The notes under the pieces were generated by a model. It searched no databases. It had not been told where the DNA came from and saw only the letters and a list, made by a program, of their open reading frames with translations. From Acidobacteriota bacterium (GTDB taxonomy: Bacteria; Acidobacteriota; UBA6911; RPQK01; CBDAPI01), in assembly GCA_965214465.1 (NCBI GenBank), contig CBDCBX010000020.1, forward strand, positions 554,363 to 618,362: 64,000 bases of DNA, given 5' to 3'. The stretch's first letter is position 1. Each line of letters begins with the position of its first letter. Positions 11,531 through 42,192 of this stretch are shown here, piece after piece. The position numbers were made by a program, and so were the translations under genes.

Positions 11531-11581
<51 letters not shown>

Positions 11582-12810: not shown

Positions 12811-14373
12811 ATGGCCAATCGGAGGCTGCCCATGCGCAAGATCAAGGAGATTCTCAGACTACATTTTCAGGCCCACTTGTCAGCTCGCCAGATCGCTCGC
12901 AGCTGCTCGGTGTCTCGGGCTACCGTGGGTGATTACCTGAGCCGGACCCGGGCCGCCCAGCTCGACTGGAAACAGGTGGCCCAGATGAGCGAGGTCGAGC
13001 TGGAAGGACAGCTTTTTTCTCCTCCGGCTCCTCGGGGCCGCCACCGCTCTCCACCGGACTTTGCCTACGTTCACCGAGAGCTGCGGGCCAAGTCAGTCAC
13101 GCTGCAGTTGCTCTGGCAGGAGTACAAACAGGGTCATCCGGACGGCTACCAGTACTCGCAGTTTTGCGATCTGTACAACCGCTGGAGAGGAAAGCTCGAC
13201 GTGGTGCTGCGGCAAAACCACCGGGCCGGCGAGAAGATGTTCGTCGACTATGCCGGCCAGACGGTCGAGATTGTCGATCCCAAGACCGGTGAGATGCGTC
13301 AAGCCAACATCTTCGTGGCCGTCTTGGCGGCCAGTAACTACACCTATGCCGAAGCTACCGAAAGCCAGGATCTTGAATCCTGGATCGGAGCTCACGTGCG
13401 GGCCGTGGAGTTTTACGGTGGCACTACCCGGGTGGTGATCCCGGATAACACCCGCACGGCTGTCTCTCAGGCTTGCTTTTACGAGCCACAGATCAACCCC
13501 AGCTACGCCGAGTGGGCAGCCCATTATTCAGTGGCAGTCATCCCGGCCCGGGTGCGGGCTCCTCGGGACAAGGGGAAAGTCGAATCGGCCGTTTTGATCG
13601 TCGAGCGCTGGATCCTGGCCGCCCTGCGCAAGCGACGCTTCTTCAGCCTGGGTGAGCTCAATGCAGCCATCCACGAACTGCTTGGAGAACTCAACCGCCG
13701 GCCTTTCCGCAAACTTGAGGGCAATCGCCTCGAGCTCTTCCGGCGTCTGGATCAGCCCGCTCTCAGACCCTTACCCAGGATCCGTTATCAGCTGGCTCGC
13801 TGGAAGAAAGCCCGCGTCAACATCGACTACCACGTCGAGTTCGAGCGCCACTACTACAGCGTCCCCTATGCTCTGGTCCGTCAGCAGGTCGAGATCCGTT
13901 ACACCCAACACATCGTGGAGATCCTGCACCGGGGCCAGCGGGTGGCCTCGCATCGTCGCAACCGCGTGTCAGGAGCCGCCTCTACCTGCTCCGAGCACCG
14001 TCCACAGTGTCACCGCCGTTATCTGGAGTGGTCTCCTTCGCGGCTGATCTCCTGGGCTGCCAAGATCGGACCCCACTGTGGTGATCTGGTCGAGAAGATG
14101 CTCGCCTCTCGCCGCTATCCGGAACAGGCCTACCGCAGCTGCCTGGGACTGTTGCGGTTGGGCAAGACCTTCGGCGAGGATCGCCTGGAGGCCGCCTGCC
14201 GGCGGGCCCTGGCCTTCTCCACCTTCTCCTACCAGAGCGTCAAGTCCATTCTCAAGACAGGTCTGGACTCCCAACCATTACCCGAGACCCAACCACCACA
14301 ACCGGCTCTGGAACACTCGAACCTGCGCGGAGCCGACTACTTCACTTGTGAGGAAAACTTCCATGCTCATTAA
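12811..14373 (+). CDS. istA: IS21-family transposase
   Basis: 520 aa. N-terminal HTH (RQIARSCSVSRATVGDYL) then DDE core. Overlaps istB at the ATGCTCATTAA start/stop. Confidence 0.85.
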   Translation: MANRRLPMRKIKEILRLHFQAHLSARQIARSCSVSRATVGDYLSRTRAAQLDWKQVAQMSEVELEGQLFSPPAPRGRHRSPPDFAYVHRELRAKSVTLQLLWQEYKQGHPDGYQYSQFCDLYNRWRGKLDVVLRQNHRAGEKMFVDYAGQTVEIVDPKTGEMRQANIFVAVLAASNYTYAEATESQDLESWIGAHVRAVEFYGGTTRVVIPDNTRTAVSQACFYEPQINPSYAEWAAHYSVAVIPARVRAPRDKGKVESAVLIVERWILAALRKRRFFSLGELNAAIHELLGELNRRPFRKLEGNRLELFRRLDQPALRPLPRIRYQLARWKKARVNIDYHVEFERHYYSVPYALVRQQVEIRYTQHIVEILHRGQRVASHRRNRVSGAASTCSEHRPQCHRRYLEWSPSRLISWAAKIGPHCGDLVEKMLASRRYPEQAYRSCLGLLRLGKTFGEDRLEAACRRALAFSTFSYQSVKSILKTGLDSQPLPETQPPQPALEHSNLRGADYFTCEENFHAH

Positions 14374-15106
14374 CCAGACTCTCGAAAAACTTCACTCCAT
14401 GCGCCTGACCGGCCTGGCCGAGGCTCTCACCCAGCAACTCGAAGATCCCGACTCCTCCGTTCTCAGCTTCGAGGAGCGTATCGGCTGGCTGATTGATCGA
14501 CACTGGCTCTGGAGAGAGAACCAGGTCCAGGCCCGGCGCCTGAAAAACGCCCATCTCAAGGACAGCCAGGCTTGCCTCGAGGATATCGACTACCGTCCTG
14601 CCAGAGGACTGGATCGATCCCTCGTCCGTTCCCTGGCCACCTGCGACTGGATCACCAGACATCAGAATCTCATCCTGCTTGGCCCCTGCGGTGTGGGTAA
14701 GACCTTTCTGGCCTGTGCCTTCGCCCAACTGGCTATCCGCCAGGGCCACACAGCCTTCTATACCCGCCAGCCTGTACTCTTTCGAGAACTCTCCATAGCT
14801 CGCGCCGACGGGACTCTGCACAAACGCCTGGCAAAACTGGCCCGTGTCGATATCCTCATCGTCGATGACTTCGCCATGACGGCCTTGGCTGAGAGCGAAC
14901 GTCGTGACTTCCTCGAGATCTGCGAGGATCGTTACAACACTCGCTCCACCATCTTGATCAGCCAGATCCCCATTGCCGATTGGCACCAACAGATCGGTGA
15001 TCCGACTCTGGCCGACAGCATCTTAGACCGGCTCGTTCACAACGCCCATCGCCTGCAACTCGCAGGAGGTTCCATGCGAAAGCGTCTGGCGGCTTCTCAG
15101 GACTAA
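14363..15106 (+). CDS. istB: IS21-family ATP-binding helper protein
   Basis: Walker A LLGPCGVGKTFLA and Walker B ILIVDDF. Start ATG at 14363 overlaps the istA stop. The ORF-track start at 14078 is an in-frame upstream extension. Confidence 0.85.
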   Translation: MLINQTLEKLHSMRLTGLAEALTQQLEDPDSSVLSFEERIGWLIDRHWLWRENQVQARRLKNAHLKDSQACLEDIDYRPARGLDRSLVRSLATCDWITRHQNLILLGPCGVGKTFLACAFAQLAIRQGHTAFYTRQPVLFRELSIARADGTLHKRLAKLARVDILIVDDFAMTALAESERRDFLEICEDRYNTRSTILISQIPIADWHQQIGDPTLADSILDRLVHNAHRLQLAGGSMRKRLAASQD

Positions 15107-17979: not shown

Positions 17980-18072
17980 CCCCTCGAGAGAAACGACGGT
18001 CCTGAATCACGGGATGGACTCGATGCTTCTCACCTCTTCAAGGAAGTTTTGGCCATTGTAAACGGGGAGGTC

Positions 18073-19847
18073 TGATTGGCGACAGTTAGAATTTCCCACG
18101 TATTGCCTCACTAAGAATCGAACCCAGTTCCGAACAGCTTATTGGTTCCTTACATCAGAAACAACGGGGCGACCGGAGCCGGACCCGCTTCGCGATCTTC
18201 TGCCGGAGCAACTGGGCGAGATTGGAACCCGATTTCGGAGGCTGTCGGCTCCACGCGAGCGATCTCGGCCTTGTAGAGCTGCTCCCTACGCCAGTCCCTC
18301 ACCCGTCGCTGCAGCGTCCGCAGTTGCCCATCGAAGAACCGACCGGGATAGCGTTGCTGAAGGCGAACGAAAAGCGCTTTGGCGGTTTGAGCGGGATTAA
18401 CTTCCAGTTGGACACGAACCTCTGGCCAGACTTCAGCAAAGGGATCCTTTCGAGTCCTCCATGTCCGGGGCTTTTTCGTCCGCCGATATCTTCTGATCTC
18501 TTTGGGTTCTTGTGAAGCGGTGATCTCGACAAGATACTTCCTGACGATTGCATCCATCTCTCTGGGGGAGTCGTTCCCTTCCAGTTCCCTTTGTCCGTTA
18601 GCAAAGGTCCAAAAATAGTCTTGGCGTCGCTCGAGCTCTTTGAGTAAGATCACCGGATCGAGCTTCCGGTAAAAACGCTCGATTCGCTCCCTCTTTCGCT
18701 TGGTGAGATAACCAGAAGCAATGATGCGCTGGTAAGGAGTTTGAGCTCGATCGTAGCGCTTCTTGACGCGTGCGCCGACGCGCTGCTTTTCGATCAGCTT
18801 CATCGAGGGCTGAAAGAAGTTCACATAGAGGCGTAGAATCTCATAAAGCTGAATCAGGGCCCGCCAGGCCCCCAGTCCCTCGTAGCGATCGTACCCGATC
18901 AGCCTTCTCACGACAGAGCCGTTCTTCTCTTCCACAAAGGCCTGATCGTTCTTTCGATTGACCCGGGAACGAGTGAAAGTGATCTGCTCTCTTTGGCAGT
19001 AGCGAAGCATCTCATAGTTGATGAACTCGCTGCCGTTATCCGTATCCAATCCCAGCAAAGGAACCGGGAGCCGGCCACGCAGGGAGTTCAGGGCGCCGAT
19101 CACGTCGGCTTCGCTGCGCCGCAGCAGGGCCACGCACTCGGTCCAGCCCGTTGCGACGTCCACCAGGACCAGCGTGTGCAGAAAACTACCGGCAGCACTG
19201 ACGCCGCAGTGAGCGACCAGGTCCGCTTCCAGAAACCCGGGTTGAAGATCGTCCCAGTCGGCGAAGGTCCGTACCTTGATCTGCTTTTTGAGTAAGCTTC
19301 CCGGCCGGGTTGTACTCACACCACGCTGATTGATTCTCTCGGTGGCCAGCAATCGATCAGCGGTGGCGGGGCTGATCGTCAGAAGCTTTCCCCGGACATC
19401 AGCGGGTAAGGACAAATGACCGTTCCTCTCCATCACCTCGATCAACTCGGGAAGAAAGGGAACCAGTCGCTTGGCGCAGATCCGGTTGGCCGTGGTCCAA
19501 AGGGTAACCAGTACCTGCTTGACTCGCTCATCGTATCGGGCGCGGCGGGGTCGCGAAGAACTAACGCTACCCGGCGGATTGTTCAACAGGGTAATGGCGT
19601 GTTTGCGACCGTAGCCGGTTGCCGCAACCAACTGATCCACGATCTGGCTCTTGATTCCTTTGCGGGCCGATGCGTAATCCTCCGCAGTGCGTGTCAACAA
19701 CTCTCGGCGCAACTCCAAACTCAACTTCTTCCTCAATTCGTCGCCTCCTCATCAAGTGTTCGGTTCGATTCTTGATGAGGCAACGGTCTCACATTAGTTC
19801 GATTTTGGATGAGTCAATGCGTGGGAAATTCTAACTGTCGCCAATCA
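18073..19847 (-). mobile_element. insertion sequence with DDE (rve) transposase, IS481/ISNCY-like
   Basis: About 46-bp imperfect terminal inverted repeats TGATTGGCGACAGTTAGAATTTCCCACG... at 18073 and the reverse complement at 19847 (TG...CA termini). Single 528-aa transposase ORF. No clear target-site duplication. Confidence 0.7.
18150..19736 (-). CDS. DDE-type integrase/transposase (rve core)
   Basis: 528 aa. N-terminal HTH region, catalytic core ...LGLDTDNGSEFIN.... Bounded by the IRs above. Confidence 0.75.
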   Translation of the reverse strand: MRKKLSLELRRELLTRTAEDYASARKGIKSQIVDQLVAATGYGRKHAITLLNNPPGSVSSSRPRRARYDERVKQVLVTLWTTANRICAKRLVPFLPELIEVMERNGHLSLPADVRGKLLTISPATADRLLATERINQRGVSTTRPGSLLKKQIKVRTFADWDDLQPGFLEADLVAHCGVSAAGSFLHTLVLVDVATGWTECVALLRRSEADVIGALNSLRGRLPVPLLGLDTDNGSEFINYEMLRYCQREQITFTRSRVNRKNDQAFVEEKNGSVVRRLIGYDRYEGLGAWRALIQLYEILRLYVNFFQPSMKLIEKQRVGARVKKRYDRAQTPYQRIIASGYLTKRKRERIERFYRKLDPVILLKELERRQDYFWTFANGQRELEGNDSPREMDAIVRKYLVEITASQEPKEIRRYRRTKKPRTWRTRKDPFAEVWPEVRVQLEVNPAQTAKALFVRLQQRYPGRFFDGQLRTLQRRVRDWRREQLYKAEIARVEPTASEIGFQSRPVAPAEDREAGPAPVAPLFLM

Positions 19848-19923
19848 GGGGGACAGGGTTCTCTCGGGTGGTGGGGCCGGCAGGTGCCAGGAAGGGACGT
19901 CAACTAGCGGAAATGACCCCGTG

Positions 19924-21486: not shown

Positions 21487-22026
21487 AGTTCTAGGGCGAC
21501 CTTAGCGCCTCAGCTCCGGTGTGGCTTGAGCCACTGCCCTATTTTGCTGGGATGCGGTCTCGATGACGCGCTCCAGTGTACCGGGTTCGAGCCGGTGTCG
21601 GAGACGGCAGGATCCCCGACGAATCCATTGCGAGGACCCAATTCCCCCCGCTGCTCCCGGCAGGAACACGCAGGGTGCGCCGGTGGCCTGCTCTAAGCCG
21701 AGATTCCCCATATCAGCCTCGGATCCGAGTTCCTCTGACCTGCCCATGACGAATACTCAAAACCTATCAGCCCTTCAACCAAGGAACAAGCGTTTTTCCT
21801 CATATTTCGGCCGAAAGTATTTGCGAACCTTCTTCTTCTCGTAGCGAGCCACGATTGGTTCCGCAGCCGCAGTCTACCCAGAATAGGCCCGCGGTCCTAA
21901 CATAGAGAGTGGACTCGGTTGTGGGGGTGGGTCACTCCCTCTGATTAATAAACAAAGTTGACACACCACTAGTCTCGTACGGCCCATTTTGTCGAACGCG
22001 TGCGGCTCAAGGACCGATGCAGGACA

Positions 22027-22167
22027 ATCGCTTTCCTGTAGGTGCCAAGTGTGTTCAAATCCTCGGGCGATGAACGAATCAATCTATCAGTGGGGAGTGG
22101 CTCATGCGAATTGAAGCCGTGGAAATGCTTGTTCAGCGGAGGGATAGAACCGAGAGGACATCCATCC
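22027..22167 (+). repeat. about 140-bp direct repeat, copy 1 (5' UTR plus first 22 codons of the hypothetical gene at 27084, truncated here)
   Basis: About 92% identical to 27008-27151. Encodes MRIEAVEMLVQRRDRTERTSIP then terminates. Confidence 0.7.
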
Positions 22168-22323
22168 CGGTCGTACCCAGGTAAGAAGTACGTAGACCCT
22201 CGTCATTCGTCATTCGGTAGACAGAAGGGCCTCGGCGATGTATAGTCAATGTATATCCGTGAATGATGACCGGGCCAGCGGCTCGGGACCTCTGGAGTTG
22301 CTCTCTCGCAGAGGAGGACCCTG

Positions 22324-26933: not shown

Positions 26934-27007
26934 ATCGGGTACCGGCAACCCTGCCAATCCCAAAGGGATCTCGACCTCTTTGAGAGAAACAATCTTCTTG
27001 AGCACCA

Positions 27008-27151
27008 TTGCTTTCTTATAGGCGCCAAGTGTGTTCAAATCCTGGGGCGATGAACGAATCAATCTGTCAGTGGGGAGTGGCTCATGCGAATTGAACCCGT
27101 GGAAATGCTTGTTCAGCGGAAGGACAGAACCGAAAGGACATCCATCCCCAT
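27008..27151 (+). repeat. about 140-bp direct repeat, copy 2 (native 5' region of the gene at 27084)
   Basis: See 22027-22167. Confidence 0.7.
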
Positions 27152-27830
27152 TGGATCTGTGGCAGGAGCGCGATATTCTTCTCGAGACGTGGCCGGCATG
27201 CGCAAGCAAATCGACGCAATGCTGGCCCGCGGCGAGGCTGGAACTAAGACCAATCCGGCGATCTTCCACATCGGTCGCTACCTGCTGACTCAAGCGGTCG
27301 AATTTGAAGTGCAAGGTCCGCTGACCGGTGGAGAGGCTGAAATTGTGGCCATCCGAGACGGGAACGACATCTTTATCTCGGTGGGCAGCGACCAGTGTGA
27401 CCGGGAATTAGATCCCCTCTTTCAAGATAAGCCCAAGCAGATGTGTCCGCATCCCATTGGCTCCACGGCTTGGGTCTACAGCGATGTCCAGGACCACTGG
27501 GATAGCCTGAGAATATCCAGCCAGGTGACGGTTGGAGAACACGTCTTGCCTCTTCAAGACTGCGCCGCCTCTGAGTTGGTTGACCTGGAATATCTTCTGG
27601 CGATGAAGGATGTGCAGTCACTGATCCTTCCATCGTTTCTCTATTGTGGCGCCGTGCCGTTTCTGGACTCGGTAGCCCAGGCCGTCGAGGACTATTCTGT
27701 CCCCGAAGAGACCCGCCACGGCGTCGGCGACGCTTTCCTGGCCCGGTTGCACGACCCCGTGCTGAATCGGACGATCGAACATCGCTACCGGGCTGTTCCG
27801 GTTGGAGATGATTTAGCGGAAAGGCGCTGA
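27084..27830 (+). CDS. hypothetical protein (no family recognised by eye)
   Basis: 248 aa, soluble, reasonable composition. Its first 22 codons and upstream region are duplicated 5 kb upstream. Confidence 0.5.
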   Translation: MRIEPVEMLVQRKDRTERTSIPIGSVAGARYSSRDVAGMRKQIDAMLARGEAGTKTNPAIFHIGRYLLTQAVEFEVQGPLTGGEAEIVAIRDGNDIFISVGSDQCDRELDPLFQDKPKQMCPHPIGSTAWVYSDVQDHWDSLRISSQVTVGEHVLPLQDCAASELVDLEYLLAMKDVQSLILPSFLYCGAVPFLDSVAQAVEDYSVPEETRHGVGDAFLARLHDPVLNRTIEHRYRAVPVGDDLAERR

Positions 27831-27869
27831 CTCAAGAATCTCGGGCCAACCTGGGCACGCGCCCCCCAA

Positions 27870-28514
27870 TTAGTTCAACTTCCGGGTCGGAAGTTCACGT
27901 GAAACGGACCACTTGATGCGCGCATCGGGAAGAGGGACAGACGTGAAGAGATCACGCGCTATCCCCTGGATGGCTCCCTCAGCTGGCGAGATGGAGAAGT
28001 CCTGCTCCACAACGCCGGGCTCGGCGAGGTTGATTTGTTCTTCGATGGCTGTGTAGCCGGCTTTGAATGCCACAGCCCAACCTCGGAGATGCGCTTCCGA
28101 GTGAAGTCTGTAGTACCCCTGCAGGTTTGATGAGGCTTCCAGTACTACTTCCTCAAATTCCTCCGTCACTGGGTCCCTGGAGTCGTAGAAGCAAACCGTC
28201 GCCCCGGCAAGGGGCTCCTCATGTCCGGCGGACAGAATGTGGCCCTCGATCACGAAATCCTGGAACGGAGAAGACCATCTCCTCAGGTCTTGTAGCTTTC
28301 GTCGAAAGACCGGATCAAGCCTCGAAGCGGGTGACCCTGCTTCCGTCGTCCCTTTACTTTCAAGATGGTCTCTTGGATCAACCCTGGTCTGGTGGGGCCC
28401 CGCGGGCTGGAGCTTCGTGCCAAGCCCCCAATCCGGACCAATGAAGAGCACTCCAATGACCAGAAGGAGACAGGTCACGAGCGCGATCACCAGATATCTA
28501 CTCATGGTCTCCAA
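27870..28514 (-). CDS. membrane-anchored hypothetical protein with carboxypeptidase-regulatory-like beta-sandwich
   Basis: N-terminal TM (YLVIALVTCLLLVIGVLFI). ...ATVCFYDSRDPVTEEFEEVVLEASSNLQGYYRL resembles CarboxypepD_reg folds. Confidence 0.4.
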   Translation of the reverse strand: METMSRYLVIALVTCLLLVIGVLFIGPDWGLGTKLQPAGPHQTRVDPRDHLESKGTTEAGSPASRLDPVFRRKLQDLRRWSSPFQDFVIEGHILSAGHEEPLAGATVCFYDSRDPVTEEFEEVVLEASSNLQGYYRLHSEAHLRGWAVAFKAGYTAIEEQINLAEPGVVEQDFSISPAEGAIQGIARDLFTSVPLPDARIKWSVSRELPTRKLN

Positions 28515-28873
28515 TGCTCTGACCGTTGGCCGGGTGGAGACAAGCGATCAATCGCGCCCGTACGCTGACAGCACTGATTGCCCTTTTCGAAGATCGTTGC
28601 ATAGGTGCTTTCTTTCCTAGACGCACTTAGGCTGACCGATGTTCCTTCACAGAATCGCCCATGCTTGCATTCTTAGGTGAACATAACGGGGAATAAGATC
28701 CTCTGGTCTGCTGGTAGCCCGAGAAGGGCGGGGAATGTGCTGCTTAAGGTTCTCTGAACACCGGTCGATCTCGCAACCGAGGGAGCAAGGAACTCCACCG
28801 CCCAGTCGAGAAGGAGAAGCCCGCCCACTACACGCAGATACGCTCGCCAGAGTCCCTGAGCTGTAACCCACAG

Positions 28874-29032
28874 GGTGATGCCCACTACGAGAAGGTCCGT
28901 CGCCAGGGCAGCATTCAGGATGTGGCTGTCTTGAAAGCGACCGGCGTGAACTGCTGGGGCAAGCGGGAGGTGATTGGTATCAGCTGCGGCTCATCACCGC
29001 TGTCGTCGAGGAGATTCACGAAGACTGGCTGA
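28874..29032 (+). pseudogene. IS256-family (mutator-type) transposase internal fragment
   Basis: GDAHYEKVRRQGSIQDVAVLKATGVNCWGKREVIGIS matches the IS256 transposase core (DATY.KVR..G.V...AVL.A.GV..DG.REVLG). Frame breaks after it; no start and no ends. Confidence 0.45.
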
Positions 29033-29398
29033 TCGGCAAGCAGTACCTCAGCCTGGTCGATTTCAAACCACAGGAGAATCCCGTCTCGGAACTCTCTCAG
29101 TCAAATTACAGAAAAACAGTTGCGTAGCCTAACCCACCCACCTGGCAATCCATACCCCCTTGACCGGGGTGAGAGGGCAGGACACTCCTCGTCTCCCCTT
29201 CCACCCACGATTAACTCTGGCCCCGTAGGGCGGTAGCGCACTTCGCCCAGAGCAATTGACTGCTCTGGTGATCTCCCATAGTCTCTACTGACAGACTTAA
29301 TCTGGGAATGATCCGAGTTGGTTGCGTTACAGCCCGCCGCTGGTACTCCCTCGGCTGCCCGGGGTGCCCCCGGAAGGATTTGTAAAGGAGAACAAGTC

Positions 29399-30382
29399 AT
29401 GTCGGAGTCAATCATGAAAAAGCACGTTCTGGTACTGGCCAGTCCCGGTCATCCCGACCTTCCGACCCTGGATGTCATCCGTGATCGGGCCCACATTCAG
29501 GTAGCCGATAGTCCTGAGCAGGCCCGGTCAGCCGTCGGCCAGGCGGAGATCGTCTTTGCCTTGCAGTTCGACAAGCACTGGTTGCTCCAGGACATCTGAC
29601 CTGGAGCCAGCTCAGTACGCTGGGTTCAATCTTCCTACGCCGGCGTCGAATCGTTGATGTTTCCGGAGTTGTTGGAAAGCCAGGTCGTCCTGACCAACGC
29701 GCGCGGTCTCTACAGCCGTGTACTGGCCGAGTTCGTGGTTGCAGCCATTCTCTATTTCGCCAAGCGTCTGGATGAACTGCGAAGCAACCAGAGAGCCGGC
29801 ATCTGGTCTCGGCTCCAGGTCGAAGAGGTCTGGGGAGGGACGGTCGGGATCGTAGGCGTGGGAGATGTAGGCCGGGCCTGTGCGGGGCAGGTTCAGGCTC
29901 TGGGCATGCGCCTGCTGGGATGCAAGCGGAATCCGGATACCATGCCCGAAATTCACCCTTTTGAACGGATGGTTTCACCCGACCGACTCCTGGAGATACT
30001 CCCGGAGTGCGACTGGGTCGTGCTGGCGACTCCTCTCACAACAAGAACCCGGGGGATGATTGGGGAACCCGAGCTGCGGGCCATGAAACCAAACAGTGTG
30101 CTCATCAACATCGGCCGGGGTGCCACGATCAGAGAGCCGGCTTTGATTCGGGCGCTGCAGGAGGGTTGGATTCGGGGAGCAGCTCTGGACGTGGTCGACC
30201 CGGAGCCGCTTCCAGCCCACAGCCCTCTGTGGGGAATGGACAATGTACTGCTGACTGCTCACTCTGCAGACCACACCTCCGATGACCTGGTGCAGGCAGG
30301 CCGGCTTTTCGTAGGGAACTTTCGCCGTTACGTCGACGGAAAACCCCTGCTCAACATGGTGAATAAACAAGCCGGGTATTGA
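29399..30382 (+). pseudogene. D-isomer-specific 2-hydroxyacid dehydrogenase interrupted by an in-frame TGA (29597-29599)
   Basis: AAGGAG RBS 8 nt upstream of the ATG. ORFs 29399..29599 and 29654..30382 are in the same frame. Readthrough gives ...DKHWLLQDI*PGASSVRWVQSSYAGVESL..., the conserved catalytic/NAD-domain junction. GxGxxG-like VGIVGVGDVGRA follows. Confidence 0.6.
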
Positions 30383-30399
30383 TTTCGGATACCGGAGCA

Positions 30400-31461
30400 C
30401 TAGCCTCCTGCCCCTAGTATCTCCCGCTTCAAATCCTCGTCCAGATTGGCCCCGCTGACCACGAGGCAGACGGTCCGGTTCCTTATGGATTCCCTGGATT
30501 GCAGCGCACCTGCCAGTGGGGCGGCAGCAGCCCCCTCGACCAGATGCCCGGTAGCCTCGTAGAACAATCTCACAGCTTCCTTCAGGGCCCCTTCCGACAC
30601 CAGGATCATCCGATCCACGACCTCCAGCATCAACTTCACCGCTTTCGGGATGGCAATGCGCACTGCCAAGCCGCTCGCAAAGGTGTCGCATGTGGCGGTA
30701 TCCACCGGCCGGCCAGCCTGAAACGACAGGGCCATGCAGGGAGCCGCTTCGGATTGCACACCCACCACCTCGAGATCAGGATCGTGCTCTTTGAGGATGG
30801 ATCCGATCCCCCCGATCAAGGCACCGTTCCCTACAGGCACAAAGACAACCTCCACCTCCGGCAGTGATTTCGCGATCTCCAGCCCGATCGTGGAGGTGCC
30901 GTCATAAATCTCGGGGGTTGATCCATCCTCGACGAAAAGACTTTCTTTGGAAAGGGCATCTGTTAGAAGCTCCTTGGTCTCGTCGATATCTCGCCCCAGA
31001 AACTCGAGGTTGGCCTCAAACTGGCGAATGAGCCTGACCTTGCTCTGGTCACACCCGACTGGAACGCCGACGGTCAAGGGCACTCCATACTGCTGGCAGG
31101 CAAACGCCATAGCGGCGCCGTGATTGCCGGTAGAGGCCGTGACCAGGTTGGGCAGCGTCGCTGCCGGACCAGCGGTCAGGTGGTGAAGAAGATTCAGCGC
31201 ACCTCGGATCTTGAACGATCTCACAGGATTGTCGAATTCGTAGCGCGCATAGGCACGACATCCCACGAGGTTGCTCAAGACAGCCTCCGCCTTCAGCGCG
31301 GAAGGCTTGAGATGCTTCTCCAGAATCCTGGCTGCCGCCACAGCCCGATCAATGGTGGGACGCAGGTTGGTCACAAATGATGGCTCCAGAGAAAGAATAT
31401 CAGAGCCTCGGCAAGGTGTACATGGCCAACGCCGGTGTCTTCGATGACCTGGACGTGGCAC
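30400..31461 (-). CDS. PLP-dependent threonine/serine dehydratase-family enzyme
   Basis: SFKIRGALNLL lysine motif and glycine-rich PLP loop (GNHGAAMA). The true start is probably internal (N-terminal 60 aa are Arg-rich and atypical). Confidence 0.7.
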   Translation of the reverse strand: MPRPGHRRHRRWPCTPCRGSDILSLEPSFVTNLRPTIDRAVAAARILEKHLKPSALKAEAVLSNLVGCRAYARYEFDNPVRSFKIRGALNLLHHLTAGPAATLPNLVTASTGNHGAAMAFACQQYGVPLTVGVPVGCDQSKVRLIRQFEANLEFLGRDIDETKELLTDALSKESLFVEDGSTPEIYDGTSTIGLEIAKSLPEVEVVFVPVGNGALIGGIGSILKEHDPDLEVVGVQSEAAPCMALSFQAGRPVDTATCDTFASGLAVRIAIPKAVKLMLEVVDRMILVSEGALKEAVRLFYEATGHLVEGAAAAPLAGALQSRESIRNRTVCLVVSGANLDEDLKREILGAGG

Positions 31462-32339
31462 TGGACTGGCATCCGGACGTCAAGACCGGAGTCAACAATC
31501 AGGCCGAACAGGCCTTGAACAACTTCACTGTCGAATTTTTCGGCCAGGCGGCCCACGGCGCTTACGATCCCTGGAACGGGCGAAGCGCCCTCGACGCGGT
31601 GGAGCTGATGAACCATGGCATGAACATGATGCGGGAGCATATCGAGCCTACCGCCAGAATCCACTACGTGATTCCTTCCGGTGGGGAGGCTCCCAACGTG
31701 GTTCCGGAGTACGCCAGAGTCTGGTACTTCGTCCGCGATATCAGCCGGGAGAAAGTGGAACGCAACTATGCCTGGGCTCTGGACATTGCCGCCGGAGCAG
31801 CCCGAGCCACGCAAACGGATCACAAGGTCTTTCTAATCACCGGGGTGCACGCCATGCTGCTGAACCGCCCCCTCCAGGAAGCCGCTCAGAAGAATCTCGA
31901 GATCGTAGGAGCTCCCGCTTACACCGAAGAAGAGCAGTCGTTTGCCCGGGAGCTGCAGGGGTTTCTTAAGATTGAACAGAAGGGGCTCTCCACCTCGATC
32001 CGTCCCCTGGCGGGAGAACCGGAACTGGCTGAGGGTGGGTCCACCGACGTGGCAGAGGTCAGCCGCATCACTCCCACCGTCAGCATCACAGTGGCCTCTG
32101 CCGGAGAAGGGCTCCCCTGGCACAGCTGGGCTACCTCCGCTTCCCACGGCATCGCCGGAGCTTCCCGGGCAGCCCAGGTGGCAGCCAGGGCCCTGGCTTT
32201 GAACGGAGTCGATCTCCTGACCGATCCCGACCTCCTGACCCGGGCCCACGCCTTCTTTCTCGAGGAGAAGGGCGAACAGCCGTATCAATCCCCGATACCA
32301 GTCGATCAGAAACCGCCGCTTCCGGAGGGTCGCCAGTAG
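31377..32339 (+). pseudogene. M20D-family amidohydrolase/peptidase (AbgB/hippuricase-like), 5'-truncated fragment
   Basis: Contains the dimerisation-domain and C-terminal catalytic-domain segments (FTVEFFGQAAHGAYDPWNGRSALDA ... IPSGGEAPNVVPE). Lacks the N-terminal roughly 150 aa with metal ligands. Upstream space is occupied by the convergent dehydratase gene. Confidence 0.5.
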
Positions 32340-32417
32340 GAGGACCCTCCGTGGTCCGATCAGATCTTCAGGTTCTGATGACTGCTCGGGGCAAGGACTC
32401 AGAACGTCCCACAATCC

Positions 32418-33062
32418 CTAGGCCAGAAGCTTCTCCACCAGATTGCCGTGGACGTCCGTGAGGCGGTGGTGGCGGCCCTGGTACTTGAAGGTCAGTTTCT
32501 TATGATCGATCCCCAGGCAGTGGAGGACGGTGGCCTGCAGATCGTGGACGTGCACCGGATCCTCCAGGATGTTGTAGGAAAAGTCGTCCGTCTTCCCCAG
32601 CGTGATTCCTGCTTTGACCCCGCCTCCCGCCATCCACATGGTAAAGCAGCGGGGATGGTGATCCCGGCCGTAATTGTCATCCTTCAGGGCACCCTGGCAG
32701 TAGACGGTCCTGCCAAACTCCCCGCCCCAGACCACCAGCGTGTCGTCGAGCAGTCCGCGCTGTTTCAGATCGGTAACAAGCGCGGCTGAAGCCTGGTCGA
32801 CGTCACGGCACTGCAGCCGGATGTCACGGGGTAGATCTTTGTGCTGGTCCCAGCCCCGGTGGTAGAGCTGGATGAAACGGACGTCTTTTTCGAGCAATCG
32901 CCGGGCCAGCAGGCAGTTGGCCGCGTACGTACCCGGCGTCCTGGAGTCCGGACCGTAAAGCTCGAAAGTACTTTCCGGTTCAGTGGACAAATCCGTCAGC
33001 TCGGGTACCGACACCTGCACTGGAAGCCAGAGCGCGGGCCGCTTCGACGAAGGTGGTGTCAT
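32418..33062 (-). pseudogene. DUF1501 (sulfatase-like) protein, C-terminal half only
   Basis: [11 protein letters not shown]...[19 protein letters not shown]... is the DUF1501 C-terminus. The N-terminal roughly 250 aa are absent and the ORF overlaps the upstream DUF1553 gene. Confidence 0.55.
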
Positions 33063-34794
33063 TCAGAAGCACCAGCGGCTGAAGAGGTGTATTGGTTCGG
33101 GATCGGCGAACCGTACAGAACTCGCGATCCGGGGCGTCGAAGGTGCCCAGCAAAGGAGGTGGCACGGTGCGCTTCCAGAAAGTGTAGAGGCTGCGTCTGT
33201 AGAGATCAGAGCCCGTGCTCTGGTGGTAAACCTGAGCCGTGTAGAATGCCCCGAAAGCCATTTCTTTCCAGAGACCGGCAGGCTGGTAAGGAAAACCGCT
33301 GGGGCCCCCGATCTCCAGGTTCAGTAATCCGCCCAGAGCCAGAGCTGAATCCCGAATCATCTCAGCCGGCAATCTCAATCGACTGGCGCGAGACAGCCAT
33401 CTGTTCTCCGGGTCGTGGGCGCCCGACCAGGCATTCATCTTCGAGGACTGGCGATAGGTAGCAGAGGTCACGATAAGTTTCTGCATCGCCTTCACATCCC
33501 AGCCGCTGTCCACAAACTCTCTGGCCATCCAGTCGAGCAACCCCGGGTGACTGGGAGGACTGCCCTGAGAGCCGAAGTCCTCACTGGTCTTGACCAGTCC
33601 GATTCCGAAATAGCCCTGCCAGAAACGATTCATGATCACCCGGGAGGTCAGCGGATGGTCAGCGCTGACCAGCCAGCGGGCCAGGCCCAGCCGGTTATTG
33701 GGAAGTTGCTCAGACATTGCGGGCAAACAGTCGGGTACTCCTGACTGTACTTCCTCGCGCTGATTCCGATAATCTCCCCGCTCCAGTAAGAAAGTCTTAA
33801 GAGGCTCCTCTCTTTCCCGCATCACCATGGTCCCGGCCATGGCAGACCGGATCTCCTTGAGCTCCGTGGCTAGAGCCGTCTGCCGAAGGTGTGCATCGCG
33901 CAGCCCGGCCGGGGCGCGGTGCTCGAGAAAGTAATCTCTCAATTCTTTCTTCTGCCCTGGCTTCAGCTCCTCTGCGTCAACCCGGAGCAAGGCTCTGACA
34001 GGCTCATCCCGGGTGAGTTGCAGGATTTCCTCCCGGCCCAGTTGCCGGCTGTAAAAGCGCAGGTCGTCCAGCAGAGCGGTCGTGCCTCTTCGTTGCTTCA
34101 TGAAAGGAAAGTCGGAGTTGACTCCCAGATAGAGGTTGCGATCGTTCTCGATGGTCCCGTTCAAGGTGTCCGAGTCCACCCTGCCTTCCTGCAACTCTCC
34201 ATCCAGGAAAATCTGCAGACCCGGGGCTTGCATAGATCCGTCGTAGACGATGGCGAGATGCTGCCATTTCTTATTCCGCAGGGGGTCCGGCAGCGAGATA
34301 GTCAGGGCTTGATGCGGCCACTCCCGAATCATTCTGAAGGAAAACGGCGTGCCTGGCTGGCCCGGGACCGACACTACCTGATCGCCCAAAAAGATCCCGA
34401 ACCCCCGCTCACCCTGATCCGGATCCCGTCGCGAGAGCAGATATCCCTCAGCGTTACCTGCCGGGAAAAGCCAGAGTGCAATCGTAAACGGTCTTTCTCC
34501 AGTCAGTTGGGCCGCTGCTCCCAGATCGACAAATGTCTCTCCGTCCAGGTTGATACCCTGCCCGACTCGACCCGCTTGATGCCTCACGAACTCACTGCTG
34601 GGGTGGGCGTGGTGATAGTTCCCACTGGTGTCGGCAAAATGACCGTCGAATTCATAGTGGGCGAGCAGGCTGTCATGGGAGGGGACCGGAAACTGGCCGA
34701 GAGCAAGGATCGAAGCTGGAGAGCCCCGTGGAATCCGCGGCAGGATCACAGGAAGACGAACACTGAATAGTGATAAAGTGAGGTGTTTTGGCAA
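32980..34794 (-). CDS. secreted LamG-like plus DUF1553 (PSD1) domain protein, apparently C-terminally truncated
   Basis: Signal peptide, concanavalin/LamG-like region, then DUF1553-like segment ending ...[21 protein letters not shown]. No DUF1549/PSCyt N-terminal portion. Confidence 0.55.
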
Positions 34795-36293
34795 ATCTGG
34801 CCGAAGAGGAAGTAATGACTACCGGCACCTGGCTCCATCGGAAACTCCTGCTCCGCGGGCTCACCGCCGTTCTGATCCTTTTCCTCCTGGTTTGGACGCC
34901 TGTGTGGGCGCAACAGGCTCCATCGGGAGTCCGCTGGGTGGTCTCGCAGGGTCAGATCCCCCCGGTCGTCTGGGGAATCTACGACCTGGAGTCGCGAACA
35001 TGGGTCAACCGGGCCTCCGGAAGATGGGGCTCGGCCTCGGCGCCGCCTGGCCAGTACAGCGTCTACGTACGCTGGACACCGGAGTCACCCCTGGAGTGGT
35101 GGGCGATGGTTGAAGTCTATGACGGGACATTCACACCCCTGCAGTCTCGCCAGCCTCTCGCCCTTTTCAGCGGAATCGCACAGTTGGTCCAGAATGCCTA
35201 TGTGGAACCTCCGCGGATGGAGCAGGCTCTGGATGGGGCCCTGGTGGCCATGATCGAGTCACTGGATCCTTATTCGAGCTATGTCAACGCTGCTACCTTC
35301 AAGGCTTTGGACCATGGGCATCAGGCCTCCCCTGGCCTGATCGTCAACAAACTCTTCGGCTACCTCTATGTGGTCTCTGTCGTGGAGGGGAGTCCGGCGG
35401 AAGAAGAAGGGCTTTACACGGGCACCCTCATTGAATCGATCAACGGAACCACCACTGCTTTTATGAGTCTCTGGGAAGCAGAGCAACGCCTGAAGGGTCC
35501 CCCCGACACCCGAGTCGAGCTTCGAGTCGTGCGCGCCCGCAGCAGCGAGCCGGTTCAACTCCAACTGTTGCGGAGTCTGGCCGACCCTCCTGATGTTGCG
35601 ACCGAGCCACTGGGAGACGGGATCGTGCGGCTGCACCTTCCTCACCTGGGAGCGGGCGTTGCGCTGGCTCTGGAGTCGATCCTCTCCGAGATCGACAATC
35701 CCCAGACCAGTGGATTGGTCCTGGACCTCCGCGGCACCGCCCAGGGCTTGATGAAGGAATCGGTGGCAAGCGCCGACCTCTTTCTGGATGAGGGTGCGAG
35801 CATCATGACTCTTTCAGGGCGGGAAGGGCCCAGCCAAGAGTTCGTGGCAGCAAAGGGAGTCGCACTGGCGGATGTGCCGATGGTAGTTCTGATTGATCGG
35901 GGGACCAGTGGTGCCGCCGAGATTCTGGCCGCGGCCCTTGAGGATCACGGACGGGCGGAAACCCTGGGCGTGAGGAGCATTGGAAACGGAGGAGTCCAGG
36001 AGAGGCAGGATCTGGAGGACGGCGCGATGCTCCTGCTCACCACCCGGAAGGTGGTGCGCTCCACAGGCTTACCCCTGCAATCCAAGGATTTGCGGAAGTC
36101 GGGCATCAAACCCTCCCTGCGCTGGCCGGACCAGAACTGGGAGATGCAATACTACTACGACCACCTCCCGGCGGGAGACGGGTTTGATCTGGAGTCTCAC
36201 CGCGACCTGCGCAAGGCCATTCTGGAGGAGCAGCTTCGAAAGGCCATTGAAAGAATTCATGAAGCCATCCAGACCCGTAAGAAAGCAGCCTGA
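34788..36293 (+). CDS. S41-family C-terminal processing peptidase (PDZ-containing)
   Basis: 501 aa. N-terminal TM/signal, PDZ region, S41 core (VVLIDRGTSGAAEILAAAL). Confidence 0.65.
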   Translation: MANLAEEEVMTTGTWLHRKLLLRGLTAVLILFLLVWTPVWAQQAPSGVRWVVSQGQIPPVVWGIYDLESRTWVNRASGRWGSASAPPGQYSVYVRWTPESPLEWWAMVEVYDGTFTPLQSRQPLALFSGIAQLVQNAYVEPPRMEQALDGALVAMIESLDPYSSYVNAATFKALDHGHQASPGLIVNKLFGYLYVVSVVEGSPAEEEGLYTGTLIESINGTTTAFMSLWEAEQRLKGPPDTRVELRVVRARSSEPVQLQLLRSLADPPDVATEPLGDGIVRLHLPHLGAGVALALESILSEIDNPQTSGLVLDLRGTAQGLMKESVASADLFLDEGASIMTLSGREGPSQEFVAAKGVALADVPMVVLIDRGTSGAAEILAAALEDHGRAETLGVRSIGNGGVQERQDLEDGAMLLLTTRKVVRSTGLPLQSKDLRKSGIKPSLRWPDQNWEMQYYYDHLPAGDGFDLESHRDLRKAILEEQLRKAIERIHEAIQTRKKAA

Positions 36294-36305
36294 TTTGAGA
36301 AACCC

Positions 36306-37967
36306 ATGATGTTTCATTCTGCATCCGTCCCGACCAAGACCCGGAGTGTTTTCAGACCAGGAACTGCAGCTTTCCTGCTGTCCCTGCTGGTGATGGCCGC
36401 AGCCTGGACAGGCTCACGCCCCCTGGAGGCTGCCAATGACAAGGCGGACCCCGATCTACTCAAGGCGCTCCAACAGTTCTCTGGGGTTCTGAGCCGAGTG
36501 GAGAGTAGCTACGCCACCGAGGTCGATTCTGCAGAGCTGGTAGAAAGCGCAGTACGAGGAATGCTGCGGACGCTGGACCCACACAGTTCCTTTTTTGCGG
36601 CCTCCGACTACTCAAAACTCCAAGAAGAGCAGGAAGGCCAGTACTTCGGCCTGGGAATACTGATTCGCCCGGCGGCGCCGGGCTCGGGCAGAGTCGTGGT
36701 GGTGGAGCCTCCCTCCCCTGGAACCCCCGCCTACAAAGTCGGACTTCAGCCTGGCGACGTGATTTTCAGGGTCGACGGAGAACCCATCGACGAGTGGGTT
36801 TACCCCGACGAGGTTATCCCCAGAATCAAGGGACCGAAGGGTACTACGGTCAAGATCAGCGTGCAGCGCCCCGGGGAAGCGTCCCCGCTCGAGCTTGAAG
36901 TGGAGCGCGATGCGATTCCCATCTACACCATCAAGCACGTCTTTCACCTGAAGCCCGAGGTGGGCTACATCCGCATCGAGCGCTTTGGCTCGACAACCGG
37001 GAAGGAGTTGCGTGATGCTCTGGAGGAGCTTGGTGAAAAGGAGCTCGAGGGTCTGGTTCTGGACCTTCGCAACAATCCCGGAGGCTCCCTCCGGGAAGCG
37101 ATTGCCGTTTCCGACCGGTTTCTGAAACGGGACCAGGTGATCGTCAAGACTCGCAACCGGGACGGGGAAACCAAACCCTATCCGGCGCCCGAAGGACGGC
37201 AGCATCTCTACCCGATGGTGGTCCTCATTAATCACTACTCAGCCAGCGGAAGCGAGATCGTGGCGGGTGCCCTGCAGGACCATGACCGGGCGCTGCTGCT
37301 CGGAGCAACGACGTTTGGCAAAGCTCTGGTGCAGACGGTCTTTCCGCTCCCGGGAGAGCGTGGGCTGGCACTGACCACGGGGCGCTACCAGACACCCAGC
37401 GGCCGCCTCATCCAGAGACCCTTTCAGCCCGGTTTCTATGACTACCTCTATGCCAGCCAGGGTGCAGCCCCGGCTCTGGACCAGGCCTTTCTGACCGACT
37501 CCGGAAGACCGGTCTATGGGGGAGGCGGAATCCGCCCCGATGTAGAAGAAGATATCGACCGCTATACTCCATTCGCCGCCAATGTGAATCGAAAGAACTT
37601 CTTCTATAAATTCGCGGGAATGCTGATCCATGGTGAGGTCGAAGGGGAAACGCGCTTCCAGCACTCCCTGGACGAGATTCGGGAGTTGAGCGGGCAGGAG
37701 CTCGACCAACTCAAGCAGGAAGTTGCCGTCTCCGAGGAGGGAGAGACTCTCGGGAGATTCCGACAGTTCTTGGAAGGAGAGGGGCTCGAGTTTTCGGACG
37801 CAGATTTCGATGAGAGCCGCCGCCAGCTAGCCAATCGCCTGCAGCAGGAAGTCTTCCTGGTCCTGTTCGGTGAGACTGAAGGAGTCCGGATTCAGCTTCG
37901 AATCGACAATCAGGTCCAGAAGGCACTGGAGCTGTTACCCCGGGCCCGGGACTTGATGGAACGGTAG
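36306..37967 (+). CDS. S41-family carboxyl-terminal processing protease (CtpA-like)
   Basis: 553 aa. Signal peptide, PDZ, VVLINHYSASGSEIVAGALQDHDRALLLGATTFGKALVQT (Ser-Lys dyad region). Confidence 0.8.
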   Translation: MMFHSASVPTKTRSVFRPGTAAFLLSLLVMAAAWTGSRPLEAANDKADPDLLKALQQFSGVLSRVESSYATEVDSAELVESAVRGMLRTLDPHSSFFAASDYSKLQEEQEGQYFGLGILIRPAAPGSGRVVVVEPPSPGTPAYKVGLQPGDVIFRVDGEPIDEWVYPDEVIPRIKGPKGTTVKISVQRPGEASPLELEVERDAIPIYTIKHVFHLKPEVGYIRIERFGSTTGKELRDALEELGEKELEGLVLDLRNNPGGSLREAIAVSDRFLKRDQVIVKTRNRDGETKPYPAPEGRQHLYPMVVLINHYSASGSEIVAGALQDHDRALLLGATTFGKALVQTVFPLPGERGLALTTGRYQTPSGRLIQRPFQPGFYDYLYASQGAAPALDQAFLTDSGRPVYGGGGIRPDVEEDIDRYTPFAANVNRKNFFYKFAGMLIHGEVEGETRFQHSLDEIRELSGQELDQLKQEVAVSEEGETLGRFRQFLEGEGLEFSDADFDESRRQLANRLQQEVFLVLFGETEGVRIQLRIDNQVQKALELLPRARDLMER

Positions 37968-37981
37968 GGAAACCAGGGGGC

Positions 37982-38046
37982 CCATCGTAGGGGCCGGTCT
38001 TGTGCCGGCCCGTTTGGCGGGCGACAACAAGGGTCGCCCCTACAAA
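37982..38046. repeat. REP-like two-hairpin extragenic element, copy A
   Basis: CGTAGGGGCCGGTCTTGTGCCGGCCCGTTTGGCGGGCGACAACAAGGGTCGCCCCTACAA. Inverted copy at 48423-48487. Both sit just 3' of a gene. Confidence 0.6.
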
Positions 38047-39419
38047 TCGTTCTCCGGGGGCTGGACCGGTCGAAAGCCCACCAGGGTCAGCGTCGCAACG
38101 ACAGCCACAGCGATCCCCTGCCAGGGTGAGAGGAAGGCAATGGCAAAGGCAATCAGCAACGCCGTGCTTCGCTCAATTCGAGTGTGCACAAGTCCAATGG
38201 CCACATAGAAACAGGCAAATCCGGTCAGCATCAGGGTCAAAGCCAGGGCGATCGGCATGAGTGGCTTGAGTAACGTCACAAGGGGCAGGATCATGTAAAG
38301 TAGCGGGGTTCCAAGACCGTAGTAAGACGAGATTCCGCTGAACAATGAATCGATTGCCCGCCGTCCCTCGGTCCAGCGCTGCACAATGATCACGTGCACG
38401 CCCGTCCAGAGTGCGCCCTGGGTCGGAAAGAAAGGTGCAAACAGGGCCATCAGCCCGTTCCTGATCGCCAGAGAATAGTGAGATCGGGTCAAATTGATGT
38501 CGATCTTTTCATCCGGACGGGAGGGAGTCGCCGACTTGAGGACTTCAATCCCGGTGATCAGATCCCCAAACAGAATGACATAGCCCATCAATGCCAGAGG
38601 AATGGTCTGCAGAAACATTTCCAGACCGGGCCACCCGATGCTGAAGGGAGAGGCCTTACTCCACAGATCAAACACAGGCGGGATCAGGATGCCCGACTGG
38701 ATCTCGTATTCCAGTTCGCCCACGAAGGGCCCTACGATTCCCGCCCCCACGAAACCCGGGAGAAGCCCCAGAGAGGCCAGAAAGGCGACCCACCTGTACT
38801 TCTGCTTGAGCCTCTGTACCGGGAGTGAAAAAGTCAGAAGCAGACACAGTCCCAGGGCAACCAGCGTACTCACCGGTTGAATGTCAAGGGCCTCCCCTTC
38901 CACCAGGAACACGCGGTACAAAGCCGCCAGGGCGGCTCCCATGACAATACCCGCTTTGAAGGTGGCAGGGAGCCACTTCATGAACTTCTTGCCCAGCCCC
39001 GTGAAGCCCATGAAAAAGAGAATCACGGTGAAGTTAAGCGAGACCGCCGTCATGAGCTGGAAACGTTCGGTGGGAGTAGGATACACAGCGAGGCCGTCTG
39101 CCCCGGTTGCCAGCACGACACTCAGAACCAGCGGCAGAGCCGGCGTCACCCAGCCGGGAGCAAAAGGCTCCCCAAAAACGATGAAGGAACTGCATACGAG
39201 CAGAGAAAGCAGCGCGATAAAAGCGACGGCCTCCTCGAAGACGAGGCCGAACTCGCCGGTCAGGAGGGGGGCCAGGGCCAGGCCGGTGGCGCCCGCGACC
39301 AGAAATCCCTGCAACAGTTCCGGAACTTCCATGCGGGTGTGATAGATGGGCACCCGACAGGTAAACGGGCCCCATTTCCATCCCGGTTGAACAGCGCCGT
39401 GTGGACGTTGGACTGGCAT
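38040..39419 (-). CDS. polytopic membrane protein (transporter-like, family not recognised)
   Basis: 459 aa, at least 10 TM segments. Confidence 0.5.
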   Translation of the reverse strand: MPVQRPHGAVQPGWKWGPFTCRVPIYHTRMEVPELLQGFLVAGATGLALAPLLTGEFGLVFEEAVAFIALLSLLVCSSFIVFGEPFAPGWVTPALPLVLSVVLATGADGLAVYPTPTERFQLMTAVSLNFTVILFFMGFTGLGKKFMKWLPATFKAGIVMGAALAALYRVFLVEGEALDIQPVSTLVALGLCLLLTFSLPVQRLKQKYRWVAFLASLGLLPGFVGAGIVGPFVGELEYEIQSGILIPPVFDLWSKASPFSIGWPGLEMFLQTIPLALMGYVILFGDLITGIEVLKSATPSRPDEKIDINLTRSHYSLAIRNGLMALFAPFFPTQGALWTGVHVIIVQRWTEGRRAIDSLFSGISSYYGLGTPLLYMILPLVTLLKPLMPIALALTLMLTGFACFYVAIGLVHTRIERSTALLIAFAIAFLSPWQGIAVAVVATLTLVGFRPVQPPENDL

Positions 39420-41136: not shown

Positions 41137-42192
41137 TTGAATTCACTCAGAGACCCCATAGGTCAGCTTCCGCTTGCCCTGCGGGGACTGTGCCTCGCAA
41201 CCCTGATTCTGCTGGCAGCTCCGGGATCCTCGGGTGCCCAGACCAGACAGGTTGAAGGGTCTCTCTCCTCAGGAGCTCGGCTTTTTCGAGATCACTGCCA
41301 GCGCTGTCACAATCCGGAGCTTCGGAACTCGGGACTGGACCTCTCCTCGAGAGAATCAGCCCTGGTCGGCGGCAAGCAGGGTCCGGCTCTCCATCTCGAC
41401 CAACCAGAAGAAAGCCCTGTCTTCAAGAAAACCGCCTCCGGGGAGATGCCTTTTGATGTCAGACTGCCGGAGACGGAAAAACTGCAGCTTCTGGAGTGGC
41501 TCGCATCCGCTGCACCCTGGCCGCAGTATGCGGCGGATGGACCTGCTCTGCCCGACGACGAAGTGCACCGGAATGTCCGAGAGGGAAATACAACCTCCAG
41601 CCAATTTACGGAAGGCAAAGACGAACAGCACTGGGCGTTTGCCCGGACTGAGAAACCGCGTGTACCCGGAGTCGAGGCTGGGAATACACACCCGATTGAC
41701 GCCTTTCTCCTCACTCAGCAGGAAAAGCTGGGGCTCACACCAGTGGGAGAGGCGGACCGCCAAATACTTGTCCGTGGAGATCCACCCGGATGCCCTGGCC
41801 ACAGCTACGAACCTGGATGTCGCCAGCTGGCCGGCCGACATCGTCGACAACCCGGACACCTGGCGGATTCCACTCTGGTAGTGTGGGGAGGAGAATTTGG
41901 TCGGCTCCCCATCAGCCAGCGTTCGGAGTTCGGGACCCAGGGACGCGACCACAACCCGCGGGGGTTCTGCATGTGGATGGCCGGGGGCGGTATCAAGGGT
42001 GGAGTCAGCTACGGTGCCACCGACGAGATCGGCTGGAAGGCTGTGGAGGGTCGAGTCTCAGTCAATGACCTGCACGCCACGATTCTGCACCTGATGGGGC
42101 TGGATCACGAACGCCTTACCTACAGTCACAACGGGCGGCCCTTCCGCCTGACCGATGTGGCCGGCAGGCTGATCCATCCGATTCTGGCTTAA
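41137..42192 (+). pseudogene. chimeric PSCyt1 (CxxCH) plus DUF1549 N-terminus fused to DUF1501 C-terminus (internal deletion derivative)
   Basis: Signal peptide. CQRCH heme-binding motif. DUF1549-like [12 protein letters not shown]...HPIDAFL. Then abruptly the DUF1501 C-terminus [11 protein letters not shown]...[14 protein letters not shown].... Confidence 0.5.

Follow-up and report, generated by a model that had tools for sequence, protein, structure and literature searches.

The D-2-hydroxyacid dehydrogenase gene described here very probably carries a real G-to-A transition which turned the tryptophan codon 62 from TGG into TGA in one of two near-identical copies of the gene, i.e., a tolerated nonsense mutation in a redundant paralogue. 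The lesion would be tolerated because the gene belongs to one of the two copies of a duplicated 2.7-kb segment. The process is ordinary early gene decay, a pseudogene formation by nonsense mutation. All coordinates refer to the window, which is the whole stretch of 64 kb that was analysed. The gene comprises the following features:

29414..30382, forward strand: D-2-hydroxyacid dehydrogenase, copy B, 322 aa if read through (Pfam PF02826, intact homologues)
29597..29599, forward strand: premature opal stop TGA in place of Trp62 (TGG), caused by G to A at 29599 and followed by C
29404..29407, forward strand: GGAG, a Shine-Dalgarno-like motif 6 nt upstream of ATG 29414, taken from the boundary alignment of the window with contig L001

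The interrupted gene and its ancestral codon

The bases 29590-29599 read ggacatcTGA, and the in-frame TGA at 29597-29599 stands in the context CAGGACATC-TGA-CCTGGAGCC. Translation of 29399-30385 in a single frame contains one internal stop only, which is codon 67 when counted from ATG 29399 and codon 62 when counted from ATG 29414; the terminal TGA of the gene lies at 30380-30382. The preliminary description had reported two open reading frames, 29399-29599 and 29654-30382, that lie in the same frame with one TGA between them. Translation as well as the end-to-end alignment of homologues bear this out, and a frameshift, which had already been discounted there, is rejected as both ORFs share one frame.

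ATG 29414 is probably the true start of the dehydrogenase, since the homology with all other versions begins at 29404-29413 and the upstream ATG is missing in copy A, the second copy of the segment. The alternative start at ATG 29399, which is absent from copy A, would give a product of 327 aa, in which Trp62 is numbered Trp67. The GGAG at 29404-29407 represents the first bases common to copy A and copy B and is regarded as a putative ribosome-binding site.

If read through, the product matches PF02826 (2-Hacid_dh_C) with E = 1.7e-51 and 174.5 bits (cut-off 25.1) over profile positions 2-178 of 178, the domain comprising residues 115-290 of the 327-aa form. The catalytic-domain model PF00389 gives a weaker match over residues 36-322, and the stop lies inside the matched span. 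Likewise, the read-through product aligns end to end with thousands of homologues of 320-330 aa (best 99% identity, E = 3e-211), and the intact proteins P0001 and P0130 are 99-100% identical to it. The best NCBIfam model is NF041369 (D-2-hydroxyacid dehydrogenase; E = 1e-60), and as its 205.6 bits stay below the equivalog cut-off of 400, the substrate of the enzyme is left unassigned. The GxGxxG dinucleotide-binding motif occurs as GVGDVG. Furthermore, R240, E269, H288, and D264 (327-aa numbering) are invariant over 24 aligned homologues, the first three being the known catalytic Arg, Glu, and His of this family.

The uninterrupted frame over both halves of the substrate-binding domain is broken by the TGA at codon 62 in the window and in contig L002, and it is intact in eight other sequences of the same species. 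Judged by this homology, the split is that of a single gene and not a chance neighbouring of two ORFs. The split products have been deposited as P0121 (66 aa) and P0122 (241 aa), the latter predicted separately by gene callers, and the 241-aa C-terminal ORF (ATG 29657) might be thought to be translated alone as an NAD-binding protein, the more so as it retains the whole PF02826 domain. Nevertheless, 86 residues at the N-terminus of the substrate-binding domain, the conserved AGVE/D segment among them, would be missing. In addition, one point mutation was enough to create the split, ATG 29657 is not preceded by a Shine-Dalgarno-like motif, and selection has not had the time to shape so young an allele. 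A functional split gene is scarcely credible on these grounds, and the two ORFs are better treated as one interrupted gene.

As a separate observation, two related strains (P0126 and P0128, 96% relatives) feature an in-frame deletion of seven residues (QVADSPE) in the N-terminal domain of the dehydrogenase; therefore, the N-terminal region tolerates change in this clade.

The alignment of orthologues, which the preliminary description had proposed for finding the expected sense codon, points to tryptophan (TGG). In the alignment of 24 homologues, Trp occupies the stop column in all of the ten closest ones (P0001-P0010, 52-99% identity), where it is part of a conserved W-P motif, and more distant homologues feature W, F, V, L, R, N, or H, with Cys in none. 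The same residue is found in all ten intact members of the 90%-identity cluster. As the close relatives have Trp, and Trp has one codon, TGG, the ancestral codon was TGG. By this comparison, the event is a change from TGG to TGA, i.e., a G-to-A transition at 29599. The recent nonsense mutation, which had been listed first among the options, is thus supported by Trp in the ten close homologues and the ten intact conspecifics.

At 29599, the window and L002 carry A; L003, L088, L091, L001, L089, L090, and the outgroup L086 carry G. Among the eight copies of the variant table, the TGA allele is carried by two of the five copy B sequences and by none of the three copy A sequences. The split products P0121 and P0122 are on record on an 831,022-bp contig (NCBI and ENA), from which the window was probably taken, and on contig L002 of 11,556 bp. 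The latter (assembly ERZ25068966) aligns to window positions 27418-38970 with eight substitutions and three indels, and is, with a coverage of about 2x judging by its name and possibly a related sample as origin, independent of the window at the level of haplotype and assembly only. Besides the A at 29599, eight further alleles are common to L002 and the window against L003. L003, which comes from a 529-kb contig whose genes are arranged as in the window, shows 99.88% identity to the window over 20,984 bp and has TGG, 29599 being the sole difference between the two within the dehydrogenase gene. From this distribution, the stop is a derived allele of a small sub-lineage, which is recent, yet old enough for two haplotypes to have diverged slightly.

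The same data bear on a sequencing or assembly base error, in which case the codon would in truth be TGG and the frame unbroken. The single substitution in a gene that is otherwise identical to intact alleles fits such an error. However, it is unlikely because L002, from a separate assembly with 11 other differences from the window, has the same A at 29599; the local context ACATCTGACCTGG is without a homopolymer run, and mis-polishing between the copies could import only an allele existing in one of them. Accordingly, the error, listed as an option in the preliminary description, has to be considered highly improbable, and the A at 29599 is treated as a real allele in the following.

An exact-pattern scan of JGI metagenome contigs gave no matches for either allele. 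A scan of the GTDB species representatives with the intact protein yielded relatives of at most 48% identity, mostly from Acidobacteriota. The dN/dS of the dehydrogenase amounts to 0.22 against L084 and 0.23 against L086, which shows long-term purifying selection on the gene. Within the 99% clade, three non-synonymous changes and one nonsense change stand against one synonymous change, which is suggestive of a relaxed constraint after duplication, the counts being too few for significance.

Relocation and gene conversion of a duplicated segment

The segment that carries the interrupted gene and its surroundings comprise the following features:

29404..32106, no strand: 2.7-kb segment with dehydrogenase, PLP enzyme, and truncated M20 amidohydrolase; twice per genome in sister strains, the window containing copy B
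28515..29403, no strand: upstream region specific to copy B, which takes the place of the ancestral divergent intergenic region between Amidohydro_3 and the dehydrogenase
30400..31374, reverse strand: PLP-dependent threonine/serine dehydratase-like gene of 324 aa (Pfam PALP, E = 5e-67), which lies within the duplicated segment and converges with the dehydrogenase
31377..32339, forward strand: 5'-truncated M20 amidohydrolase remnant, which covers positions 125-346 of 366 of TIGR01891 only

In a blastn comparison of L001, L089, and L090 with the window, the match was confined to 29404-32106 and showed 99.6-99.7% identity, the counterpart in L001 being 9991-12693. On these three contigs, copy A is accompanied by acyl-CoA dehydrogenases, an enoyl-CoA hydratase (ECH), and Amidohydro_3 upstream, and by an IS3-type element downstream. 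This upstream arrangement is to be regarded as ancestral because a related species with 87% nucleotide identity (L084, L085) has it too. Copy A is intact in every strain seen. Copy B is preceded in the window, L002, L003, L088, and L091 by a DUF2848 gene, a 211-aa ORF, and an 880-bp stretch in which nothing could be recognised, and is followed by truncated DUF1501 and PSD1 genes and two S41 peptidases.

Upstream of 29404-29413, no homology of the copy B region to L001 or L084-L087 was detected. ORFs of 28515-29403 gave nothing above noise against Pfam, and neither a convincing ORF nor an Rfam match was found in this region. Likewise, no sigma-70-like promoter was found in 28400-30500, in a scan that is uninformative for this phylum. 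The boundary alignments show copy B to be a relocated copy, which has lost the ancestral upstream region up to the putative ribosome-binding site. Within the copy B region, a piece of 127 bp (29024-29136) matches L087 5581-5707 in the opposite orientation with 80% identity.

The presence of both copies in one genome is indicated by several records. The 5,680,161-bp contig that carries copy B (L091, product P0127) has the same length as the longest contig on record for P0001, the product of the second dehydrogenase gene (322 aa), and for P0133, the Amidohydro_3 neighbour, which is found next to copy A only. From these matching exact-protein records of P0127, P0001, and P0133, both copies can be deduced to lie on one contig of 5.68 Mb. 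Both contexts also occur within the single assemblies ERZ28669063 (L088 and L090) and ERZ21829562 (L003 and L089). In addition, NCBI-sourced records include a 149,646-bp contig with the intact P0132 and the M20 fragment P0167; P0133 is NCBI-sourced as well. Based on the sister strains and on the NCBI-sourced P0132, P0167, and P0133, we infer that the strain of the window itself possesses an intact copy A.

The variant table of the eight copies reveals an exchange between the two loci. The alleles 29544T, 30050G, and 30853T are common to L091 (copy B) and L001 (copy A), and 29534A, 30316A, and 30540T are common to L088 (copy B), L089 (copy A), and L090 (copy A). Moreover, L002 (copy B) features copy-A-type alleles at 32003 and 32018, and L089 (copy A) features copy-B-type alleles at 32003-32090. 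Strain-specific SNPs are thus shared across copies A and B and not within the same copy between strains, which argues for recurrent gene conversion. Duplication and gene conversion are shown for the sister strains.

Termination at codon 62 would leave an N-terminal peptide of 61-66 residues. Such a peptide would be devoid of the NAD-binding domain and of the catalytic Arg, Glu, and His, so that copy B is probably null or slightly leaky at most. Redundancy with copy A would mask the loss of copy B and render the lesion nearly neutral. Gene conversion could later erase the stop or spread it to copy A.

Decoding of the UGA codon

Downstream of the stop, one further feature had given rise to the consideration of recoding:

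29607..29623, forward strand: hairpin inside the coding sequence, with a 5-bp stem (CCAGC at 29607-29611, GCTGG at 29619-29623) and a 7-nt loop

Programmed recoding would imply that UGA is read as selenocysteine by means of a downstream SECIS element, or that an alternative genetic code assigns it to Trp or Gly. In favor of it, an in-frame UGA is combined with a hairpin that begins 7 nt after it. The preliminary description had noted this CCAGC-N7-GCTGG hairpin and had called it weak, which proved right on both counts. The 64 nt from the TGA have a folding energy of -18.2 kcal/mol, the mean of the shuffled sequences being -17.2 (z = -0.33), and of 200 shuffles, 66 were at least as stable. In addition, the hairpin is identical in the TGG alleles, with no variant in 29607-29623. 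An Rfam scan of 29350-29800 by E-value returned matches at chance level only (E near 1), and neither a tRNA-Sec nor any other tRNA gene is located in the window. No Sel domains were found among the scanned proteins of the 64-kb window. The description had further assigned recoding a low prior and held selenocysteine to be mechanistically implausible at this position, to be reconsidered if selABC should be present and the UGA conserved in orthologues. This judgment stands: the orthologues have Trp and never Cys or Sec, and the TGA is absent from diverged relatives and unconserved even among 99.9%-identical strains.

The use of stop codons in the window argues in the same direction. TGA is the commonest stop codon locally and ends nine of the 17 called neighbouring genes as well as 18 of the 40 long ORFs of the window. 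None of these 17 genes contains an internal stop, Trp is encoded by TGG throughout, and the dehydrogenase itself ends in TGA where all homologues end (...AGY). Programmed recoding therefore deserves next to no credence.

Three candidates of this type were rejected individually. A selenoprotein gene is contradicted by the unconserved TGA, by the aligned Trp, and by the lack of SECIS support in fold and Rfam scan. An alternative genetic code does not agree with a TGA that terminates called genes including the dehydrogenase without occurring inside them. Programmed read-through is at odds with a TGA that occurs in two of eight conspecific copies only and in no diverged relative.

A leaky stop is of a different nature. 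A Trp-tRNA with the anticodon CCA would misread UGA-C, a small fraction of wild-type enzyme would be formed, and copy B would be a weakly functional hypomorph. In E. coli K-12, read-through of UGA by competition of Trp-tRNA with RF2 amounts to about 2% at 37°C and about 4% at 25°C (PMC10570021), and UGA_C is a weaker terminator than UGA_U in eukaryotic reporters (PMC9841425). As the UGA replaces a Trp codon here, near-cognate read-through would restore the native residue; moreover, the base after the TGA is C, and no other lesion is found in the rest of the gene. UGA followed by C was reportedly described by Poole and colleagues in 1995 as a weak terminator in E. coli too. Nevertheless, there is no sign of selection for the stop, which is limited to two of five copy B and none of three copy A sequences, and the downstream structure is not significant. 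A few percent of product from a redundant copy without its ancestral upstream region are also unlikely to matter. Altogether, a leaky stop that keeps copy B weakly functional seems unlikely. Very unlikely is the extended form of this idea, in which read-through by Trp-tRNA at a few percent and a toggling of the stop by conversion constitute a reversible dosage-lowering allele kept in the population. The tolerated nonsense mutation in a redundant paralogue remains the preferred reading.

Gene remnants around the locus and comparison with known systems

The interrupted dehydrogenase is surrounded by other damaged genes. For the PLP gene, the best NCBIfam model is a threonine dehydratase with 226 bits, below the curated cut-off of 317 bits. 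The start of the adjoining M20 remnant, in which roughly the N-terminal third is missing, abuts the divergent start of the PLP gene with a gap of 2 bp because of a deletion of about 800 bp in the M20 gene. Full-length M20 genes of 494-518 aa are present in L086 and L087, and the window is without an equivalent of L086 8006-8808 (about 800 bp). Altogether, the window is rich in remnants and mobile elements: besides the truncated M20 and DUF1501 genes, it contains a broken group II intron, several IS elements, and a fusion of the type PSCyt1::DUF1501. It seems that genes are commonly lost piece by piece in this genome.

Several of these elements can be described more closely. In a scan of the whole window at the gathering threshold, Rfam matches were restricted to group II intron domains. 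The RNA domains are located at 11563-11850 (RF02001 with 152 bits, RF01998 with 63 bits; within 11563-15103). The neighbouring reverse-transcriptase ORF (11887-12615) matches the first 123 of 205 RVT_1 positions only and appears to be cut by a pair of an IS21-type transposase and IstB (12811-14370, 14078-15103). On the reverse strand, 32418-34791 contains a damaged PSCyt/PSD1-DUF1501 pair, the DUF1501 ORF of which (32418-33059) covers profile positions 198-390 of 390 only and overlaps the PSD1 ORF. On the forward strand, in the single ORF 41137-42189, an N-terminal PSCyt1 domain is fused to the final 100 positions of DUF1501. Both pairs look like internal deletions.

Repeats are found in the window as well. 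A direct repeat of 148 bp with 92% identity (22021-22168 and 27001-27148) brackets about 5 kb with a MazE/PemK toxin-antitoxin pair, an IclR regulator, an HpcH/HpaI aldolase, and a DDE_Tnp_1 transposase. Inverted repeats of 53 bp with 91% identity (18072-18123 and 19797-19848) flank the ORF of a 528-aa transposase (18150-19736; rve and Y4rL_C in the annotation of L003) and probably mark the termini of an IS element that is still intact. Dispersed repeats of 43-69 bp with 93-100% identity occur at 26891-26933/43226-43268, 37986-38048/48421-48484, and 10146-10212/11406-11473, the first pair being a perfect 43-bp direct repeat whose units are 16 kb apart. A further observation concerns the gene for the glutamate synthase small subunit (203-1738), the best named relatives of which (67-74% identity) belong to Planctomycetota (Pirellulaceae, Phycisphaera sp., and Lignipirellula). 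The PSCyt1, PSD1, DUF1501, and sulfatase genes of the window fit these relatives.

Regarding annotation, P0121 and P0122 should be presented as one pseudogene with an internal stop, and not as a selenoprotein or recoding event. In more general terms, apparently broken genes of metagenome-assembled genomes can turn out to be genuine alleles that segregate and are masked by a hidden paralogue. In addition, the locus illustrates on a small scale how duplicated segments undergo gene conversion in nature, here in a genome with many mobile elements.

Compared with known systems, the locus bears several partial resemblances. In the genetic code of table 4, UGA is read as Trp, and in that of table 25 as Gly. 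These reassigned codes resemble the present case in a UGA where relatives have Trp; they differ in that the genome here features about 59% GC, TGA as the most frequent stop, and TGG for all other Trp codons seen. In bacterial selenoprotein genes of the fdhF type, the UGA is directly followed by a SECIS hairpin bound by SelB. The likeness consists in the in-frame UGA and a small stem-loop within about 10 nt. However, the orthologues here have Trp encoded by TGG, the UGA is unconserved, the hairpin is of shuffle-level stability and already present in the TGG alleles, and the position is that of a non-catalytic hydrophobic residue.

Read-through by Trp-tRNA as known from E. coli K-12 (PMC10570021) comes closer, as the UGA stands at a former Trp codon with C at +4 and read-through would give the wild-type protein, but signs of conservation or selection of the stop and a stimulatory structure are absent here. 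Likewise, as in concerted evolution by gene conversion, strain-specific SNPs are common to the two 2.7-kb copies, and short tracts in one copy bear alleles of the other, with the difference that one copy has a nonsense mutation which conversion has so far neither erased nor spread. The closest correspondence is found with the ordinary nonsense-mutation pseudogene ("internal stop" in NCBI annotation). What marks such a pseudogene, a premature stop against intact near-identical alleles, is observed here and reproduced in a second assembly; the single stop, the full-length 99.9%-identical alleles in conspecifics, and a genome rich in IS elements and remnants are shared with this class. Nothing essential sets the locus apart from it; the one addition is that the affected gene is one of two converting copies, so that the lesion is masked and may be reversible.
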